This document shows, piece after piece, positions 3,231 through 13,900 of a stretch of 34,020 nt of DNA. Each line of letters opens with the position of its first letter. Positions within the stretch are counted from its first letter, which is position 1. The DNA is from Candidatus Hydrogenedentota bacterium (GTDB lineage Bacteria; Hydrogenedentota; Hydrogenedentia; Hydrogenedentales; JAEUWI01): the NCBI GenBank assembly GCA_034669905.1, contig JAXMOL010000070.1:1-34020 (forward strand), read 5' to 3'. The position numbers were made by a program, and so were the translations under genes. The notes beneath the pieces were generated by a model, which was not told the origin of the DNA, did not search any database, and saw only the letters and a list, made by a program, of their open reading frames with translations.

Positions 3231-4448
3231 ATGAGTAGTAACGATCCGGCTGTAGATGTGTTTTCTTCTGCTGCGTCCCTACCCCTCGCGGGGCCCGATG
3301 CGGTTTGGAGTCGGCGTGCCTTCCTGGGGCAGGTGGGTGTGGCCACGGGGCTTGCCTTGGGGACGACGTTCCCCGCCATCGCCCAGGCTGCCGAATCGCC
3401 CACGGAAGCCATCGAACGCATCGTGGCAGCGCGTCAGATTATCAATGTCCATGAGCACGTCCAGGGGGAGGCCAACACCGAGACCCTCCTGCGTGAAATG
3501 GATGCCCTGGGCATTGGGCGCACCATCCTCGTGGGCAGTCCGTGGTTTACCTTGTCACTCTATGAGCAGGCGGGCTTTACCCGACACGACGAGAACAATG
3601 CTGCCATCGTGGCCATGGCCCGTGCCCATCCGGGTCGTTTTGAAGCCTGGCCCACGGTGAACCCCCTGGAGGCGAACAAGGTCGAGAAGTTGAAGCCCCT
3701 GGTTGCGCAGGGTGCCACGGGGGTGAAGCTCTACCTGGGGCATGGGTACACGGCTTCTCGGCGGAACACCTATATTTTTCACCCCATGGCCATGGATGAT
3801 GCCCGGATGATGGAGGTCTACGAGTATTTGTCGGAGGCCCATCTGCCCGTCTGCTTTCATGTGAATCCCGCCAAGCCGGGCTTTATGGATGAGTTTGTCA
3901 CGGTGCTGCGGCGCTTTCCCGACCTCAAGGTGAACACGCCCCATTACATGCTTTCTTCCATGGTGCACTCTCGCCTCAATGAAATGCTGCGTACTTTTCC
4001 CAACCTGGTGGTCGATATCAGTTTCGGCCACGATGACTACCTGCGGACGGGGCTCCAACGTATTTCTTCCAGTACGGGCGCGTTTCAACGGCTCTTTACG
4101 GAATTTCCCGAGCGCTTTCTTTTTGGCACCGATTATGTCGTCACCAGCCTGCGGCCCCATGATCATGAATGGTATGCCATTCGTACCCAGGCCTATCTGG
4201 ATATGTTGAGCCGAACCTCTTACACCACCCCCTTACTACCGGGGCGAACCCTGAATGGGCTGGCCCTCTCGCCCCATCAACTGGAGTGTTTGCTTTACCG
4301 CAATTACACGTCGTTTCAAGCGCTTCGCCCCAGCGGGACGGTTATTACGCGGGAGGTGGAGTGGGGGAGATTGCGGGTTCCCTCGGTAGATCGTGCGCCC
4401 GGGCAGGCCCTCGACCCACCCGTCCGTCGTGGTCGGCGCCGGGGATGA
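3231..4448 (+). CDS. Tat-exported amidohydrolase-family (Amidohydro_2-like) protein
   Basis: SRRAFL twin-arginine motif plus hydrophobic stretch; INVHEH metal motif, GVKLY, VCFH and FLFGTD. Start placed at ATG 3231. Confidence 0.8.
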   Translation: MSSNDPAVDVFSSAASLPLAGPDAVWSRRAFLGQVGVATGLALGTTFPAIAQAAESPTEAIERIVAARQIINVHEHVQGEANTETLLREMDALGIGRTILVGSPWFTLSLYEQAGFTRHDENNAAIVAMARAHPGRFEAWPTVNPLEANKVEKLKPLVAQGATGVKLYLGHGYTASRRNTYIFHPMAMDDARMMEVYEYLSEAHLPVCFHVNPAKPGFMDEFVTVLRRFPDLKVNTPHYMLSSMVHSRLNEMLRTFPNLVVDISFGHDDYLRTGLQRISSSTGAFQRLFTEFPERFLFGTDYVVTSLRPHDHEWYAIRTQAYLDMLSRTSYTTPLLPGRTLNGLALSPHQLECLLYRNYTSFQALRPSGTVITREVEWGRLRVPSVDRAPGQALDPPVRRGRRRG

Positions 4449-5762: not shown

Positions 5763-7394
5763 ATGCACGGCGGCAAGCTGGTAGGAAAAACTCTTAAGGC
5801 GGCGGGGGTGGAATGCGTATTTACCCTCAGTGGTGGTCATATCATGCCGATTTATGATGGTTGCACCGATGAGGGTATTGCTATTATCGACGTGCGCCAC
5901 GAGCAGTCGGCCGCCCATGCCGCCGATGCGTGGTCCCGGGTGCGTCCTGGCAGCATTGGCGTGGCCCTGGTAACCGCCGGGCCGGGTGTAACCGATGCCG
6001 TGACGGGCGTCGCCAATGCGTGGCGGGCCAATTCGCCCATGCTGCTTATTGGTGGCCAGGGGCCCTTTGCCAACCGCGGCAAGGGTTCCCTCCAGGAAAT
6101 GAACCACGTGGCCCTCATGAAGCCCATCACCAAATGGGCCGACTCGTGCTATGAGACCGAACGGATCCCCGAATACCTGGAGCTGGCCATGCGCCATGCG
6201 GTGTCGGGCATACCCGGGCCCGCCTTTCTTGAGTTGCCCATGGATATCCTCATGAGCGAGGCCCGTTGGGAGGTGCCGATTCCAAATATCCAGACCCGGC
6301 CCCCGTCCATTTCGCCGGCCCCTGAGCCTGTGGCGGCCGCGTTGGACGTCCTGGAGGCTGCGGAGCGTCCCATGATGATGGTGGGTACGAGCGTCAAGTG
6401 GTCTCAGGCCCAGGATGCCCTGCACCGCTTTCTGGAGAAAACCCATATTCCGGCCTATGCCAATGGCATGGGCCGCGGCATGTTGCCCCGAGACTCTGAA
6501 CTGCTTTTTAACCGGACCCGTCGCCAGGCCATGGAGGCGTGCGATGTCATTGTGCTTGCCGGAGCGGTACTCGATTTTCGTCTGGGCTTCGGGCAATCGA
6601 TTCCCAAAGAGGCGAAGATCATTCAGCTTGAGATGGATAACACGCTCATCGGGCAGAACCGCTCCACCGACGTGGCCCTGGTGGGTAATCTCGCCTGCAC
6701 CCTGGATGCCATGACGGCCGCCCTGGACGTCCGGGAGAAGCCCATCGACTTTGCAGACTACGCCAAGACCCTGCGGGTGGTGGAAGACGAGAAAGCGGCT
6801 GCTGTGGCCGCGAGCGCATCGAATGATCAGGTGCCCATCCACGCCGATCGCCTCTGTCGGGAGATTGCCGACTTTGTGAATGACGACATGATTATCGTGG
6901 GGGATGGGGGAGACATTGTGGCCAAGACCGCCAAGGTGCTGCCCGTCCCCAAGAACGGATTCTGGATGGATCCAGGGCCCCTGGGAACCCTCGGTGTGGG
7001 CATGCCCTTTGCCCTGGCAGCCCAGCATGCCCACCCGGACAAACGGGTACTCATTGTCTATGGCGATGGCAGTTTCGGACTCAACGGCTTCGAGTATGAC
7101 ACGGCGATTCGCTTCAATTTACCCATCGTGGGCATCGTCGGAAATGACGCGGCCTGGGGTCAGATGATGCGTCCCCAATTGGCCTTTTATCCGGACAAGC
7201 CGGCGGTGGCGACCCAGCTCAATTACACCCGCTACGACAAGATTGTGGAGGCCATGGGCGGGCACGGGGAATACGTCACCGAGCCGGACCAGATACGCCC
7301 TGCGCTGGAGCGCGCCTTTGCCTCGGGCAAGGCGGCCTGCATCAATGTGGAGATAGAGCGTGACCTGGCCTTTGGCGGGGGTATTTACGTCTAG
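5763..7394 (+). CDS. Thiamine-diphosphate enzyme of the acetolactate synthase / 2-hydroxyacyl-CoA lyase-like family
   Basis: FTLSGGH, DVRHEQ.A.HAADA, TAGPG and DPGPLGTLGVG; GDGSFG..(x)..ND ThDP-binding motif; AAGGAG RBS. Confidence 0.85.
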   Translation: MHGGKLVGKTLKAAGVECVFTLSGGHIMPIYDGCTDEGIAIIDVRHEQSAAHAADAWSRVRPGSIGVALVTAGPGVTDAVTGVANAWRANSPMLLIGGQGPFANRGKGSLQEMNHVALMKPITKWADSCYETERIPEYLELAMRHAVSGIPGPAFLELPMDILMSEARWEVPIPNIQTRPPSISPAPEPVAAALDVLEAAERPMMMVGTSVKWSQAQDALHRFLEKTHIPAYANGMGRGMLPRDSELLFNRTRRQAMEACDVIVLAGAVLDFRLGFGQSIPKEAKIIQLEMDNTLIGQNRSTDVALVGNLACTLDAMTAALDVREKPIDFADYAKTLRVVEDEKAAAVAASASNDQVPIHADRLCREIADFVNDDMIIVGDGGDIVAKTAKVLPVPKNGFWMDPGPLGTLGVGMPFALAAQHAHPDKRVLIVYGDGSFGLNGFEYDTAIRFNLPIVGIVGNDAAWGQMMRPQLAFYPDKPAVATQLNYTRYDKIVEAMGGHGEYVTEPDQIRPALERAFASGKAACINVEIERDLAFGGGIYV

Positions 7395-7982: not shown

Positions 7983-8011
7983 TTGACAGCGTTCGGACAA
8001 GGTGCTAGACT
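7983..8011 (+). promoter_or_regulatory. Sigma70 promoter of tRNA-Gly
   Basis: TTGACA (7983-7988), 17-bp spacer with TGc, TAGACT (8006-8011), just upstream of the tRNA. Confidence 0.75.
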
Positions 8012-8028
8012 GGGCCTACCTTAAGTGA

Positions 8029-8104
8029 GCGGGACTAACTCAGTTGGTAGAGTGCCAGCTTCCCAAGCTGGATGTCGCGGGTTCGAACCCCGTGTCCCGC
8101 TCCA
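8029..8104 (+). tRNA. tRNA-Gly(CCC)
   Basis: 76 nt. GCGGGAC/GTCCCGC acceptor stem, D loop AGTTGGTA, CCAGC-TTCCCAA-GCTGG anticodon arm, GGTTCGAACC T loop and encoded CCA. Confidence 0.97.
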
Positions 8105-8364
8105 TTTTATTTTTCCCTCCTTCTAAGGTTTCTTTTTCTCCCTGATGCTAACCGGGGAGACTTGCGCTCCTGGCTACCTTGCCAGGGCACCTGCCGCGCA
8201 CAGCCCTTTCTCGACGCCTATCATGGCGATCTCGCATGCCAGAGTGATTTGTTTTTAAACAGGTGTGTCCGACTACTGAAAATCTGTCCGGGCACAAAAC
8301 CTTTATAGTGATTGTGAGTTGCATATATTGCTGCAAGGCAGTGGCTTATGGTGTGGCAGCTAAT

Positions 8365-8391
8365 ACAAAACATAAGGTATATATAGGACAG
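8365..8391 (-). other. Degenerate dif-like site
   Basis: Plus strand ACAAAACATAA-GGTATA-TATAGGACAG versus ATAGAACATAA-TATATA-TTATCAGACGC at 8479; same orientation. Confidence 0.35.
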
Positions 8392-8478
8392 ACAGGAGGA
8401 GGTGTTTGGTGTGGAGCCATAGGTTCTGGCTGTGACTTTGTAGGTGTTTTAAATTGATACCATATAAGCCCTGTCCAT

Positions 8479-8506
8479 ATAGAACATAATATATATTATC
8501 AGACGC
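8479..8506 (-). other. dif-like XerCD recombination site (28 bp)
   Basis: Minus strand GCGTCTGATAA-TATATA-TTATGTTCTAT has the 11-6-11 layout and ATAA-N6-TTATGTT core of E. coli dif (GGTGCGCATAA-TGTATA-TTATGTTAAAT). Confidence 0.7.
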
Positions 8507-9484
8507 TGCGGGGGTGTGTGGATTGCGGTAAATATCCCCGTTTGTGGGGTTGTCCTATGGCTTCATGAGGGTTCGGCGCTTAGGATGGGTTCTGGGCGTT
8601 TCACCATTCTTACGGACGTCACAAGTGCGCCCCCGGTGTGTGTCGTATTTCTTCCAAGGCTGCCAATGGTACTGCGCCAGGCGCATGCTTGTGGAGACCT
8701 CGGGACGGTGGTTGCGCTACGGGTGGCTGGCTTCCGTCCGGTGGTGGTCTTTCTGAATACTCCACATTTGAGGCTCCTAGCAGAATCCTTCCGCCATGTT
8801 GGATCAGGGGTGTGACCGAAATGGCCCGTGACGGGTAGTTGGTCCGGGGTGTAGTTCGCTTTCAAGAGGGGTACGGACCCGGTCATGGTCGCCTGGACTC
8901 CGGACGGCTTGGGGGGCAATCGGGCTGGTAGCCTTGGGCGTACGCCGGTCGTTTCGTCCATGCGTTTTAATTGGGGTCCCAAGACATGGGGGACCTCCTC
9001 CCCACCATCCATGGTTAGGGATACCTTCTGCTGCATGTCATTTTAGGTTATGGCTAAAAGTCTCGATGGTTCATCTTGCGCAGGTCTTCCGTGGGTCGTG
9101 TCGATAGTCCCAGGCAGTTGGCGCGGGTGTGGTCCTGATCGCCACAGACAGAGTTCACGCTTTTCGGGTGATGGACGGAGCAGCGCTGTTTCGAAACGAA
9201 ACGAATCTTACGGTGGCTCGGTGGTATCCTGGACAGCGGCGGACACTTTTCGACTGATTGGTTGGCCGGACGCCGGTCTTCGCCTTGGTCCGTCAGGCGG
9301 GTCTTGCCTTGGGAGCGCCGCGTATTCTTATCCTATGGCGGTTTTTTCTTGGTGTCCAAGGGGGCCTGTTCCGGTGGCTTTTGGGGTACGTAGCGACACG
9401 TTTCTACCGGTCAAATTTGAGGGACCCGAGGAGGGCAACGTGGGGTCCAATCAGGGGGGGATTGCCCGTCAGTTGGGGGTGGCC

Positions 9485-10375
9485 TCAGGGGTCTTCGTTG
9501 GGGGTGTGTTGGGGCTTCCGCTGGGCGGCCACCATGGCTTCCAGGGCAGCCCATCCCTGGCGTTGTTCCGGGGTCAGGGTGGCCTCTCCCCCAGTCTCTA
9601 ACCGGTGGTCCACGGCCCGAAGCCAGCGCCGGGTTTTCCGTGGCAGGGCCAGCTTTTCGTTCACCACCAAGCCGGTGACCCGCTGCTGCTGATGGGGTCG
9701 CAGGAGGCGGAGTTTCTTCTTCTGATGGACCTTGTAACCGCCCGCTTCGTAGACGATATCTTTCGTGAGGTGGATGACGGCGGCGTGGTCTTCCCGACGG
9801 TCTCCGGCGAAGGAAAAGGTCATGTCATCGGCATAGCGGGTGTAGACGCCGTGGCACGTGGTCGCCAATCCGGCGAGGCGGGCATCCATCCTGTAATTCA
9901 CCAGATTGCTGAGGATGGGGCTCGTGGGTGCGCCCTGGGGCAAGCCCCCTTCATGGGTGCAAAGTCGGGTCAGGAGTGCCGCGCTATCCCGGTTCCAGCC
10001 GATTTTTCGGAAGTACTTCGTGATGCGTTTGGCCCGGGTGTTGGGGAAAAAATCGCGGATATCCATGCGGACGACCACGGCCTTACCCACATGGACGGCC
10101 GCATTGCTGGCAATGGAGTAGCCGGGACGGAAGCCGGTGACACTGGGGTGAACGGGCAGGCGCTTGAGAAGTCGGCGGTGTAGTTGGCGCTGGATGGCCT
10201 TGAGGTCGTCGTTGGGTGCGGTAATGATACGCGTGCCGCCTGATCGTTTGCTAATCTCGAAGTCTTGGTACGTGCAGGGGGTGCTTTCCAGTACAGACAG
10301 CGACAAACCCACGCGTTCCGCCAGCTCTTCCGGCGTGCGTCCGGCGTTTCCGGTTATCCAGGACCAAAAGGCCAT
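9485..10375 (-). CDS. Retron-type reverse transcriptase (296 aa)
   Basis: KRSGGTRII.AP...LKAIQR, GF.PG.SI.SNAAVH (region X NAxxH), MDIRDFF, LPQGAPTSPILSN, YTRYADD and QRVTGLVVN (region Y VTG). Start at ATG 10375 with GGGAG RBS. The longer ORF-track start runs through the ncRNA. Confidence 0.92.
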   Translation of the reverse strand: MAFWSWITGNAGRTPEELAERVGLSLSVLESTPCTYQDFEISKRSGGTRIITAPNDDLKAIQRQLHRRLLKRLPVHPSVTGFRPGYSIASNAAVHVGKAVVVRMDIRDFFPNTRAKRITKYFRKIGWNRDSAALLTRLCTHEGGLPQGAPTSPILSNLVNYRMDARLAGLATTCHGVYTRYADDMTFSFAGDRREDHAAVIHLTKDIVYEAGGYKVHQKKKLRLLRPHQQQRVTGLVVNEKLALPRKTRRWLRAVDHRLETGGEATLTPEQRQGWAALEAMVAAQRKPQHTPNEDP

Positions 10376-10393
10376 TGTCGGGCTCCCTGCTGT

Positions 10394-10422
10394 AAAAACG
10401 GCGCCGACCTTCGCCGACGCCG
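10394..10422 (-). terminator. Terminator/attenuator-like hairpin between retron ncRNA and RT gene
   Basis: Minus strand CGGCGTCGGC-GAAG-GTCGGCGCCG (10 bp, two G-U pairs) followed by T5. Confidence 0.55.
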
Positions 10423-10423
10423 G

Positions 10424-10533
10424 ACCTGTCTTGCTAGTCGTGCGACGACTGCACCGACTCTCGCGTTGGGCATTGCTACCCGGTTGACGAAACATCAACC
10501 CATGCTCTGCATTGGAGCACCACCAAGACAAGT
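10424..10533 (-). ncRNA. Retron msr-msd non-coding RNA (~110 nt)
   Basis: Terminal inverted repeats ACTTGTCTTG (10533-10524) and CAAGACAGGT (10433-10424). Unpaired G10523 lies opposite G10434 (candidate branching G). Three msr hairpins (10520-10502, 10500-10482, 10481-10468 with GCAA loop) and an msd hairpin at 10450-10436. All non-Watson-Crick stem pairs are G-U only on the minus strand. Confidence 0.8.
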
Positions 10534-10539
10534 AAGGGC

Positions 10540-10568
10540 AGTATACGACGGAGGAAACGACGCGTCAA
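10540..10568 (-). promoter_or_regulatory. Sigma70 promoter of the retron
   Basis: TTGACG (10568-10563), 17 bp, TATACT (10545-10540). The predicted +1 A10533 is the first base of the ncRNA inverted repeat. Confidence 0.8.
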
Positions 10569-10747
10569 GGCGGTTTGTGGGGCTGGTGAGGTCGGATTTC
10601 CGGGACGGTATCGCGCCGCAGGGCTCGGTCTTAGCGGGAGAACGTGTCGGGACCACCCCGAACGCGCCATATCTTCCCTACCACCACAACGCGCGTTCCT
10701 GTCCCGACGGTAGAAGGCTGGGATGGCTCCCGTATCCGGCGCAAACT

Positions 10748-10996
10748 ATTGAATGGCGTGGATTTGTAGCTGGCGGAGAGTCTTGCCCCAAACACTGTCC
10801 CGCAGTAGCGGAACGGTATGCATTGCTACGGGGGACCGTAGCAACGAGCCAAACTACCCTATGGAGGCGGCGCCCCCCTTCTCAGAACCCACCGGGACAT
10901 GCAGCCGCGTTGGAGTGTGCCTTGGTGTAGTCGGTCGTAGTGGAATGCTCTTCGTGGCCTTTGTGCTGCGTGGGGCCCGTGCGGCAGAACGTCCCT
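10748..10996. repeat. ~249-bp direct repeat, copy 1 (contains a REP-like hairpin)
   Basis: Matches 11151-11398 with about 11 substitutions and 1 indel by manual alignment. Confidence 0.93.
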
Positions 10997-11014
10997 CTCA
11001 ACCAGTCCCCCCCG

Positions 11015-11113
11015 CTCGTTCCCAAGCTCTGCTTGGGAATGCAGTCTCCGTATCTCCATGGCAGGCCGTCCCTTTATATTAGGCTTGTGACGACGGTCCT
11101 CCGTCGTCACCCA
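11015..11113 (+). repeat. Two REP-like palindromes between the long repeats
   Basis: CTCG-TTCCCAAGC-TCT-GCTTGGGAA-TGCA (11015-11043) and CTTG-TGACGACGG-TCCT-CCGTCGTCA-CCCA (11084-11113). Confidence 0.7.
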
Positions 11114-11150
11114 TGCCTTGCCGCTCCGGCGGCAATCCGCCCTGGCGGAA

Positions 11151-11398
11151 ATTGAATAGTGTGGATTTGAAGCTGGCGGAGAGTCTTGCCCCAAACACTG
11201 TCCCGCAGTAGCGGAACGGTATGCATTGCTACGGGGGACCGTAGCAACGAGCCGAACTACCCTATGGAGGCGGCGCCCCCTTCTCAGAGCCCACCGGGAC
11301 ATGCAGCCGCGCTGGGGTGTGCCTTGGTGTAGTCGGTCGTAGTGGATTGCTCTACGTGGCCTTCATGCTGCGTGGGGCCCGTGCGGCAGAACGTCCCT
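11151..11398. repeat. ~248-bp direct repeat, copy 2
   Basis: See copy 1; offset 403/402 bp. Confidence 0.93.
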
Positions 11399-11418
11399 TC
11401 GCGCTCGCGCTCTCTCCC

Positions 11419-12723
11419 CTACTTCTCCCCCAGTCCCTTGATGTGGCTGATGACGCCTTCGGTAAAATCGGCTTCGGCCTGGTCGGTCATGACGGTTACG
11501 TTGGGCTCGTAGCCCCCCTCGGCGAAGGCGGCTTTGGTGGGCAGGTAGAGCAGGGAGCCGTTGGTGAGGCCAAAGTAGAGGGTGTTTTTGAAGGGCGAAG
11601 CGGCGCGGACGTTGAGGGCGATTTCGCTGAAGAGTTCGAGCGGTGCGGCCCAGATGACCGTGTCCTCGTTGATGGTGAGGCTGTAGGTCGACACGCGCAC
11701 CTGGTTCACCCCATCGACCACCGTGCTGTATTCGGAGAGGGTGTCCACCCAGCCGAGGCCTTCTTTGCGGGGTGTTTCGATAACGGCCTTACCTGTGGCG
11801 AGGGACACGTCGGCCGTGGTCTCGGTGATGGATTCGTTCAGGGCGAGGATGGGGTCGCCGAGGGTCTTCTCAAAACTCTTGATGCGGGGGTCGGTGATGT
11901 CGTTGCCCACCGTCGGAAAGGGGGCCACGTTGCCTTCGGCACCATTGACGAAAAGCACGGGCGTGCCCAGCTTCGCTTCCACATAGGCCGAAGCCCAGCC
12001 CGGCGCGTCGCCGCTGATCTGGGTATTGCCTCCGTGGAGGCAGGTGCCGTGGATGGCGTAGTTGGCGATGAGGCCAATGGGGGTGCCATCGGGACGTTCC
12101 AGGCGAATGAGCCCGAGTTGTTTGTCGGCGGGGCCATCGGGGTTCTCACCTAGGACAATGCGGCCATCGCGCAATTCCCGGCGGTTGATGTTGGCGTGGG
12201 CCTCGCCGATACCGATGCCCAGACGCGCGGGTTCCAGTTTGGATTGGGCTTCTTTGACACCCTCCACGAGGACGTCGGCCACCCAGGCCCAGTAGTCCGT
12301 ATCATGTTTGATGGAGAAGCGATCGCCCAGGGTGCTGCCGAAGAGGGTGCTGAGATCCTGGGGTCCCACATGGGGTGCGGAATGGGTGTGGGTAGTGGAC
12401 CACCAGATTTGCTCGGGTTTAATACCCGTCTCGGCTTCGAGGGTCTTGCAGAAGTCGTCGTAATACTTCAGCGAGATGGTGCAGATATCAGATGCAACAA
12501 GGTAGAAGGTGCTTTGGCCGTCATCGATTGCGGCGATACGGTGGTAGAGTTTATCGTGAACACCGGTCGATTGTCGGGGTGCATACCCGTGGAGCCACTG
12601 GGGCGTTTCGGGCGTGATGTCCACTTTGACACTGGCCGCACGCAATTCGGCGTGGGCAGGACCCGAAAGGATGAGCGTGGCAGCGAAGGCGACAAAAAGA
12701 ATAGCGGGAACACAAATTCGCAT
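11419..12723 (-). CDS. Secreted neutral/alkaline ceramidase N-terminal-domain-like hydrolase
   Basis: Signal peptide MRICVPAILF..AHA; KVDITP...L.GY..R.STGVHD.L, THTHSAP, NYAIHGT, ISGDAPG, GAEGNV and EGGYE. Start at ATG 12723; the ORF-track extension runs through a REP pair. Confidence 0.8.
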   Translation of the reverse strand: MRICVPAILFVAFAATLILSGPAHAELRAASVKVDITPETPQWLHGYAPRQSTGVHDKLYHRIAAIDDGQSTFYLVASDICTISLKYYDDFCKTLEAETGIKPEQIWWSTTHTHSAPHVGPQDLSTLFGSTLGDRFSIKHDTDYWAWVADVLVEGVKEAQSKLEPARLGIGIGEAHANINRRELRDGRIVLGENPDGPADKQLGLIRLERPDGTPIGLIANYAIHGTCLHGGNTQISGDAPGWASAYVEAKLGTPVLFVNGAEGNVAPFPTVGNDITDPRIKSFEKTLGDPILALNESITETTADVSLATGKAVIETPRKEGLGWVDTLSEYSTVVDGVNQVRVSTYSLTINEDTVIWAAPLELFSEIALNVRAASPFKNTLYFGLTNGSLLYLPTKAAFAEGGYEPNVTVMTDQAEADFTEGVISHIKGLGEK

Positions 12724-12765
12724 GGGGAACTCCACGTGTTGGATTCTGCTAACCCACCGGTCAAT

Positions 12766-12845
12766 TCCCCTCCCGGGAGGGGTCAGGGGTGGGTTTGCGA
12801 CGCTTCTCGTGACTCGACCCACCCCCAGCCCCTCCGAGGAGGGGA
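12766..12845. repeat. Inverted REP doublet (REPIN-like)
   Basis: TCCCCTCCCGGGAGGGGTCAGGGGTGGGT (12766-12794) faces ACCCACCCCCAGCCCCTCCGAGGAGGGGA (12817-12845). Each unit has its own CCCCTCC..GGAGGGG hairpin. Confidence 0.75.
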
Positions 12846-12970: not shown

Positions 12971-13900
12971 CTACCCCATCTTCATATCGCCGATGAGGTC
13001 GGTGATATTCGCGACGCCGTGACGTTCACAATAATCGTTCAGACCCTCGACAACTTTGATAGCCGCGTCGGGCTGGCGGAAGGAGCAGGAGCCCACGGAG
13101 ACGCCCGTCGCGCCGGCAAGAATAAACTGCATGGCGTCACTCGCGCTTCCGATGCCACCCATACCAATGATGGGAATCTTCAGGACCTTGGCGCAATCCC
13201 ACACCATCTTCAGCGCGACGGGACGAATGGCGGGGCCGCTCAGTCCGCCCACGATGTTGCTGAGGATGGGCTTACGGGTTTCGGGATTGATGCCGATACC
13301 CAGCAGGGTGTTGATGAGGGCGATGCCATCGGCGCCGGCTTCCTCGGCGGCCAGGGCGGGCTCTGCAATGTCGATGATATTGGGCGACAGCTTAATGAAA
13401 ACCGGCAACTTGGTGGCCGCTTTGATCGCTTGGGTGTAGAGTTGGACCTGTTCCGGAATCTGGGCCACCAGGGTGCAGCCCCGCGCCGTGCGGGCATCGT
13501 GGACGTTGGGGCACGAGAGGTTGGCTTCGATGGCATCGGCGGCGTCGGCTTCATCGAGGCGCCGTGCGAGCTCCGCGTAATCTTCGGGGCTCTTCCCGTA
13601 GATATTTCCAATGACGGTGCACTTCTTCTCGCGGAGAAAGGGGGCCTTCTCCCGGAGATAGGCTTCGATGCCGACGTTTTGCAGTCCGATGGCATTGAGC
13701 ATACCGGCCGGGGTTTCCACCAGGCGAGGGGGCTTGTTACCCGCGCGGGGTTCGAGCGAAAGGCTCTTGGTGGTAACCGCGCCGAGTTTCGAAATGTCGA
13801 AATAGCGATCATACTCTTGCCCGTAGGCGAAGGTGCCCGATCCGACGGTGACCGGGTTTTTCATTTTGAGACCACCGAGATTTATTTCAAGATTTGCCAT
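12971..13900 (-). CDS. pyrD: Dihydroorotate dehydrogenase (family 1B) catalytic subunit
   Basis: KNPV..SGTF, GN.PPRL.ETPAGMLNAIGLQN.G, NLSCPNV, KLSPN, INTL and GGLSGPAIRPVAL. Confidence 0.95.
   Translation of the reverse strand: MANLEINLGGLKMKNPVTVGSGTFAYGQEYDRYFDISKLGAVTTKSLSLEPRAGNKPPRLVETPAGMLNAIGLQNVGIEAYLREKAPFLREKKCTVIGNIYGKSPEDYAELARRLDEADAADAIEANLSCPNVHDARTARGCTLVAQIPEQVQLYTQAIKAATKLPVFIKLSPNIIDIAEPALAAEEAGADGIALINTLLGIGINPETRKPILSNIVGGLSGPAIRPVALKMVWDCAKVLKIPIIGMGGIGSASDAMQFILAGATGVSVGSCSFRQPDAAIKVVEGLNDYCERHGVANITDLIGDMKMG

Follow-up and report, generated by a model that had tools for sequence, protein, structure and literature searches.

Stand-alone retron cassettes, which lack an associated protein, have been described in clades 2 (Ec107-like) and 11, according to the accessible portions of Mestre 2020 (PMC7736814). 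The locus reported here likewise consists of an RNA and a reverse transcriptase (RT) only. Its family, however, sits on a different RT branch, has a shorter msd and occurs in Planctomycetota, Hydrogenedentota and others, whereas the hosts of Ec107-like and clade 11 retrons are Actinobacteria or Bacillota. Type XIII (clade 10: Mx162, Mx65, Sa163, Ne144) supplies the best HMM match to the RT and resembles the family in having a similar h2 hairpin and an RNA upstream of the RT. In contrast to type XIII, the family has no SWIM/ARM accessory, and its RT is mostly about 290-330 aa rather than about 430-620 aa. Type X (clade 7) shares with the window family a short RT and PVC-type hosts, and is listed without an identified ncRNA. 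Eco6 (Ec48, type IV) is similar in its short msDNA and Eco1 (Ec86, type II-A3) in its 8-bp msr hairpin with a UUU loop, but both carry an effector gene and belong to other clades. Ec48, 48 nt by name, is the shortest classic msDNA known.

The window, meaning the whole stretch of DNA that was analyzed, comprises 34,020 nt from a Candidatus Hydrogenedentota bacterium (GenBank assembly GCA_034669905.1, contig JAXMOL010000070.1). On its minus strand lies a two-component cassette of ~1.1 kb in the order promoter, 110-nt RNA, strong hairpin and 296-aa retron RT. On balance, we favor reading this cassette as a retron that stands alone, belongs to an unclassified lineage, is predicted to make ~30 nt of DNA and likely functions without a linked effector.

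Promoter, RNA and reverse transcriptase of the cassette

A preliminary description of this DNA had proposed a promoter, a 10-bp terminal inverted repeat with a G opposite a G, three msr hairpins, one msd hairpin and a retron-type RT, and each of these parts was recovered. The sigma70-type promoter TTGACG-17-TATACT (10540-10568, minus strand) has 10/12 matches and is the top of four promoter-like sites within 8000-11500, where shuffles average 1.2 sites. From the 7-nt spacing we infer a transcription start (+1) at 10533. A -35 box, TTG[AC][CTA], is present at the equivalent offset in 53/66 family copies, compared with 5.5% of random positions. Among close relatives, DNA similarity starts at this box and stops at the RT stop codon, and the flanking genes differ.

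The putative 5' end of the RNA is the first arm of the terminal repeat, a1 (10524-10533), which forms 10 bp with a2 (10424-10433). Double changes are seen in 6/8 counted pairs, and 98.7% of the cells are paired. The unpaired G directly after a1 is invariant in 29 aligned copies. In the window this base is G10523, which by analogy with known retrons is the predicted branching G with the 2'-OH primer, and it faces the opposing G10434 that adjoins a2 (together 10424-10434, minus strand). Hairpin h1 (10502-10520) has the 7-nt loop CAAUGCA and double changes in 3/4 counted pairs. Hairpin h2 (10482-10500) has an 8-bp stem and a UUU loop, with 100% of cells paired and three pairs double-changed. Portions of PMC6868368 and PMC11257497 describe an 8-bp stem with a UUU loop as the element bound by region Y of Ec86, and by this resemblance h2 is likely the site at which region Y of the RT would bind. 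Hairpin h3 (10468-10481) carries a GCAA loop in the window and varies in register within the family. It beats its own shuffles (p≤0.05) in 22/29 copies folded singly and is not significant in the other 7/29; in fixed alignment columns it is only 50.6% paired, and it is missing from the RNAalifold consensus, making it the least conserved helix.

Between h3 and the opposing G there are 33 nt (10467-10435), in agreement with the spacing first described. Within them lie a conserved purine block, GAGAG (10458-10462), which in 39/48 copies having the block is separated from the opposing G by 26-33 nt, and the msd terminal hairpin AGUCGU-CGC-ACGACU (10436-10450), in which 6/6 pairs show double changes. 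The UCGCA-type loop of this hairpin is found in 38/50 short copies. Single-sequence MFE favors an alternative msd fold, whereas the covariation backs the terminal hairpin. The stems contain four non-Watson-Crick pairs, and all four are G-U on the minus strand only, as had been claimed. The fold of 10424-10533 on the minus strand has a z-score of -3.6, with 0/200 shuffles as good, and a 121-nt stretch scores -2.65 on the minus strand versus -1.78 on the plus strand. Using gathering and E-value thresholds, Rfam returned only tRNA and one chance match, leaving the cassette RNA without a curated family.

The stretch separating the RNA from the RT contains a 10-bp GC hairpin followed by T5 (10394-10422, minus strand), which was absent from the preliminary description. 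In 63/66 copies, versus 18% of controls, a2 is followed by a hairpin of ≤-20 kcal/mol. T-runs of ≥4 after the hairpin were scored in 15/66 copies against 12% of controls, a count that under-scores (1 for the near-identical L081). A canonical terminator was rejected as a family-wide feature, with the hairpin present and the T-run not enriched by this count; the element in the window may be terminator-like or 3'-protecting. In the mechanism that we propose, the promoter likely fires at a1, and the hairpin would likely end or protect most transcripts, with read-through giving the RT mRNA. One metatranscriptome run contains a single 182-nt contig over 10339-10519, which crosses the hairpin into the RT, and none over the RT body. 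It carries no weight as support because it is a single contig and may be DNA.

The RT itself (9485-10375, minus strand) is 296 aa long, with no fused effector. It opens at ATG 10375 behind the ribosome-binding site GGGAG (10387-10383) and stops at 9485; an in-frame TTG start at 10531 (348 aa) was rejected because the RNA region is open in differing frames in relatives and the ribosome-binding site precedes ATG 10375. NAAVH (91-95), YADD (181-184) and VTG (233-235) are all present, and an alignment of 45 proteins shows an intact region X and VTG alongside a near-invariant RYADD. The AlphaFold model has a pLDDT of 90, and its best fold match is the RT of Ec86, the closest solved RT. A dN/dS of 0.13-0.17 against six relatives places the RT under purifying selection. 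The closest named protein comes from Hydrogenedentota. The host genome has no second RT and no second copy of the retron RNA.

Covariation and distribution of the RNA family

Locus searches yielded 160 loci, of which 43 plus the window form a close set at ≥45% identity, with a few borderline loci assigned by hand. The same RNA lies upstream of the RTs in this set, which spans Planctomycetota, Hydrogenedentota, Armatimonadota, Acidobacteriota, Chloroflexota and others. We parsed 66 distinct RNA copies from Planctomycetota, Hydrogenedentota and other phyla. In 29 aligned short copies, 19/29 pairs have double changes and 91.9% of cells are paired, as opposed to 32-50% in slid controls. The covariation count was 142 cells versus 44.7 in shuffles, reached in 0/500 of them, although the shuffle figures overstate significance because the aligned copies are related.

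A covariance model of the regions upstream of RT homologues had been suggested as a check, and its outcome favors a conserved, covarying structure. The model, R1, was run on 135 genomes of the host phylum. Matches of 62-107 bits were found in exactly 15/135 genomes, 10 of them in the training set and 5 outside it, and these are the same 15 genomes that have an RT of ≥53% identity. A sixteenth, weak match is a decayed promoter-h1-h2 remnant without an RT. R1 also matches 16/17 further family loci, missing one without upstream DNA, and 0/53 other RT loci. It has no match at type XIII loci or at two clade-11 loci, L182 and L183. Outside the host phylum, R1 is positive in 15/151 Planctomycetota and 9/151 Phycisphaerae genomes, search centers included. 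The Planctomycetota and Phycisphaerae searches gave 24 loci, and 21 were left once two centers and one contig-end fragment had been dropped (one repeats L011). All 21 further matches lie upstream of an unfused RT with ≤29 extra C-terminal residues.

In 50/66 copies, 45-54 nt separate the end of h2 from the opposing G; the remaining 16/66 have a longer msd, with 60-113 nt over this distance. The term "minimal type" used at the outset thus fits the 50 short copies but not the 16 long ones. Loci L173 and L004 have the same RNA and RT start, and flanks are common to the pairs L171/L173 and L013/L015. Since flanks are shared in some pairs and different in others, the cassette is both inherited and gained or lost.

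Several loci depart from the simple arrangement. L091 has two full retron RNA copies (1085-1204 and 3694-3813) 2.6 kb apart, and in L292/L300 (G274:C52 138233-138514) tandem RNA copies with different msd sequences precede one RT. In such double-RNA loci, one RT may make two msDNAs. A decayed promoter and RNA 5' half without an RT of its own was seen in L165 (529-628) and L204 (G064:C50 17505-17582). Promoter capture is suggested at L165, where the remnant lies immediately ahead of an unrelated membrane-type ORF of 209 aa.

Predicted length of the msDNA and a possible contact between loops

The opposing G is not copied in known retrons, and for this reason copying is predicted to begin at A10435. 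Again by analogy with known retrons, region Y of the RT likely holds h2, and the 2'-OH of G10523 likely serves as the primer. Synthesis would then run from A10435 across the msd hairpin and, as we think fairly probable, halt near GAGAG just past h3. The geometry of the possible stop sites gives 28 nt at GAGAG, 31 nt three bases on, 39 nt at the h3 loop and 47 nt at the base of h2. The predicted msDNA is accordingly about 31 nt, TAGTCGTGCGACGACTGCACCGACTCTCGCG (10435-10465, plus strand), likely within 28-39 nt. A product of about 30 nt (28-33 if the RT halts after h3) is most likely, which keeps the length first proposed as the leading value. We favor this length because the structure of h3 is conserved, the purine block follows h3 and stops tend to precede AT-rich RNA; the GAGAG block itself would likely serve as the RNA-DNA hybrid and stop zone. 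The resemblance of h2 to the stem bound by region Y of Ec86 makes it unlikely that the RT copies h2, which sets the ceiling of 47 nt. A predicted DNA of ≤47 nt, most likely about 30 nt, compares with the 48 nt that the name Ec48 denotes.

The same cassette could instead make an msDNA of 39-47 nt, Ec48-sized and modestly short, if the RT melts h3 and stops ≤9 nt from h2. Because h3 is the least conserved helix, and it is also the weakest, the RT may read into it. Moreover, h2 is equivalent to P3 of Eco1, and the portions of Palka 2022 (PMC8989520) that deal with Eco1 place its stop between P3 and P4, within a predicted hairpin that forms unstably, and report that termination is not set by secondary structure. 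Likewise, the Khan 2024 text, as far as it is accessible, calls termination points unpredictable from sequence. RT-DNA seen on gels spans 40-180 nt according to part of PMC12548924. Set against this longer product, h3 is kept with compensatory changes in 22/29 copies, and the purine block occupies the expected place of the hybrid, on the 3' side of h3 after a linker that is usually rich in pyrimidines. Termination in retrons is also typically located just before an AT-rich stretch in the literature extracts that treat it. We consider the 39-47-nt product unlikely, though deserving of serious weight.

Returning to the product of about 30 nt, a further feature concerns the loops. The h1 loop (xxxYGCA) and msd loop (UCGCA) of short copies carry the same-sense GC core, and the DNA loop TGCGA would therefore be complementary to the h1 RNA loop. 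Of the 50 short copies, 38 have the core in both loops, 10 have it in neither loop and 2 have it in h1 alone; 13/16 long copies lack it in both. A change of G to C in both loops is found in L084 (CAAUCCA/UUCCA) and L306 (AAAACCC/GCCCA). The covarying loops suggest an RNA-DNA kissing contact of 2-4 bp, a link resting on related sequences plus two double changes, and a competing alternative pairing within the msd is also enriched (74 vs 59). It may be, though it is less likely than not, that the DNA loop TGCGA docks on the h1 loop CAAUGCA to give a compact RNA-DNA knot. A bolder reading would make the locus an effector-free new retron type whose ~30-nt DNA, the shortest known, kisses its own msr hairpin. 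The RT-bound knot would then be the active agent, acting as a decoy for, or a sensor of, nucleic-acid-binding proteins from phage or host, and sister lineages would have repeatedly captured C-terminal effector domains. Taken as a whole, we find this reading rather doubtful.

Classification, neighborhood and possible function

Scored with PADLOC models, the window RT reaches 275 bits for RT_XIII (best), 241 for RT_X, 232 for the outgroup and 209 for Ec107-like. HMM-typed members score 414-520 bits for type XIII and 394-428 for type X. Of 17 wider-branch representatives, 15 from a larger scanned set plus P0002 and P0010, only two pass an E-value of 1e-82, P0010 for XIII and P0187 for XI. An RT phylogeny, which had been named as a check, puts the family on a branch of its own in both trees (FastTree 0.92; IQ-TREE SH-aLRT 89 for 39 rows); the trees come from our own RT sample rather than the Mestre reference set, with about half of the type XIII loci thinned out. 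The nearest group in the IQ-TREE quick tree is type X, weakly (SH-aLRT 89, unstarred), and the window RT falls outside the starred type X branch. Close-family RTs have no IHF-VHL gene upstream, unlike type X. The window RT ends ~10 aa past the thumb and has no C-terminal protease or TIR fusion of the kind seen in types XI/XII.

The lineage appears to match no defined retron type, and the preliminary suggestion of an undescribed type holds to this extent. The type scheme in the accessible portions of Mestre 2020 has no such type, and the Khan 2024 preprint, in the part covered, has no Planctomycetes or Hydrogenedentes entry. The contig of one family member, L018, is entered in Toro 2026 as low-confidence type III-A5 (1/6 accessions tried). 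In the covered part of the same work, low-confidence, low-priority Planctomycetota are filed under clade11-B and III-A5, with no RNA described for them. The retron literature searched, in which supplements and subscription papers are only partly covered, yielded no description of the lineage.

Could the family nevertheless be a reduced type XIII (clade 10) offshoot that has lost SWIM/ARM, or whose SWIM is unlinked, and that persists as a neutral or selfish cassette? The best PADLOC match points in this direction, and joining the family to type XIII is not rejected by the AU test (p=0.36). The h2 hairpin is common to type XIII RNAs, the host has an unlinked SWIM_XIII-like gene, and decayed RNA remnants exist (G064, L165). 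However, typed XIII RTs score far above the window RT, and the free tree joins SWIM-linked XIII to clade 11 (SH-aLRT 99), apart from the family; RTs of Dietzia and Tsukamurella (clade 11) group with XIII and not with the window family. The h2-type loop also occurs beside type II-A RTs. The host SWIM_XIII-like protein scores 90+83 bits versus about 720 for linked SWIM proteins. A dN/dS near 0.15 together with a conserved RNA speaks against neutrality. We regard this reading as a whole as improbable.

The host SWIM-like gene (G000:C1 96180-97286; L163 691-2031) encodes a 446-aa SWIM zinc-finger protein beside groEL, with no RT near. Weak, unlinked SWIM-like genes occur in 3/135 genomes, and a SWIM effector acting in trans was rejected, as only 2/15 retron-bearing genomes have such a gene. 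Two observations concern the described types themselves. At type X loci L147, L155, L157 and L136, L158, a conserved, structured-looking sequence lies downstream of the RT stop; it does not match R1 at the loci examined and is a candidate for the type X msr-msd. Alphaproteobacterial type XIII loci L024, L030 and L097 have two h2-type hairpins several hundred bases apart upstream of the RT, possibly duplicated ncRNAs.

No non-overlapping neighbor family is common to the 44 close loci, a comparison mostly of ORFs above about 70-100 aa, and the DNA of genus relatives is homologous only as far as the RT stop. By contrast, 63 distant loci have the SWIM accessory (SWIM_XIII) in common; a SWIM zinc-finger (cluster 114) gene is linked in 0/44 close loci, which have no ARM accessory either. 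Among 129 flanking ORFs at 38 loci (longest-ORF picks, some of them shadows), 7 match any PADLOC model and 0 are retron effectors. Near the window cassette, six ORFs that are small or shadows had no Pfam match, and neither did one in L081. The retron had initially been called complete; this stands for promoter, RNA and intact RT, but there is no linked effector gene. An amphipathic N-terminal helix was considered as effector and is kept as no more than a lead. An aromatic M[GS][LF][FW]xWL-like N-terminus is present in 49/100 proteins with a median moment of 0.37 versus 0.29 background, which is weak, and the window RT has 0.14. Its N-terminus is thus not amphipathic, which weakens the membrane-effector idea.

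Convincing defense neighbors are present at 2/38 loci only (L016 and L084), and searches of viral contigs (best 46%) and plasmids (best 40.5%) turned up no close member, giving little contextual support for a defense role. The flanks in the window are of housekeeping type: a neutral-ceramidase-like gene (11419-12822), an acetolactate-synthase-like gene (5763-7394) and dihydroorotate dehydrogenase (12971-13900). The window locus is not a defense island. A tRNA-Gly(CCC) gene (8029-8104) is followed by 1.4 kb of single-copy, partly AT-rich DNA up to the RT stop, and the ORFs tested in this interval have no Pfam match. Mobility through tRNA-Gly integration was rejected: neither a repeat nor an integrase was seen, and the genome has only one copy of 8102-9484. 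Upstream of the retron, the spacer holds a 250-nt direct repeat, 95% identical (10748-10996 and 11151-11398), whose palindromic core is REP- or MITE-like and has nearly 50 BLAST matches genome-wide.

Some relatives have a fused domain. Longer RTs of the same branch are fused to IHF, HTH_40, DUF1266, trypsin, CHAT and EAD5, and a TIGR03067 label also occurs (P0127, P0158, P0167, P0179, P0189, P0186, P0203, P0187, P0197, P0213, P0034, P0052 and P0110). P0127 is an IHF-like fusion, and P0187, a distant wider-branch member, is a trypsin fusion. Most fused architectures of the branch lie outside the 13-type scheme. For the stand-alone retron that we favor, the RT-msDNA particle would best be pictured as a sensor or decoy in phage infection or conflict, a role to which we give a little less than an even chance. 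Its output would be an unlinked partner or the particle itself, and some relatives would use a fused effector-like domain instead. That the RT binds the RNA and makes little or no DNA, with the RNA or RNP as the functional product, is very improbable, since RYADD, region X and VTG are maintained and the opposing-G geometry is conserved, even though, in the source portions that report this, RT-DNA was not visible in E. coli for 36/98 predicted retrons and not detectable for some retron groups, and a hairpin between RNA and RT would favor RNA over RT mRNA.

The finding adds a retron lineage with its own RNA family, present in about one in ten sampled genomes (15/151 Planctomycetota, 15/135 in the host phylum). 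Its predicted DNA of about 30 nt would fall below the lengths commonly given for retrons, and the natural short and long msd variants on one scaffold offer a test of RT termination and of minimum msDNA size. The compact RT, with relatives that tolerate a longer msd, is a candidate chassis for single-stranded DNA production. What effector-less retrons do is a general question, and this 1.1-kb, two-component cassette is a directly testable case.
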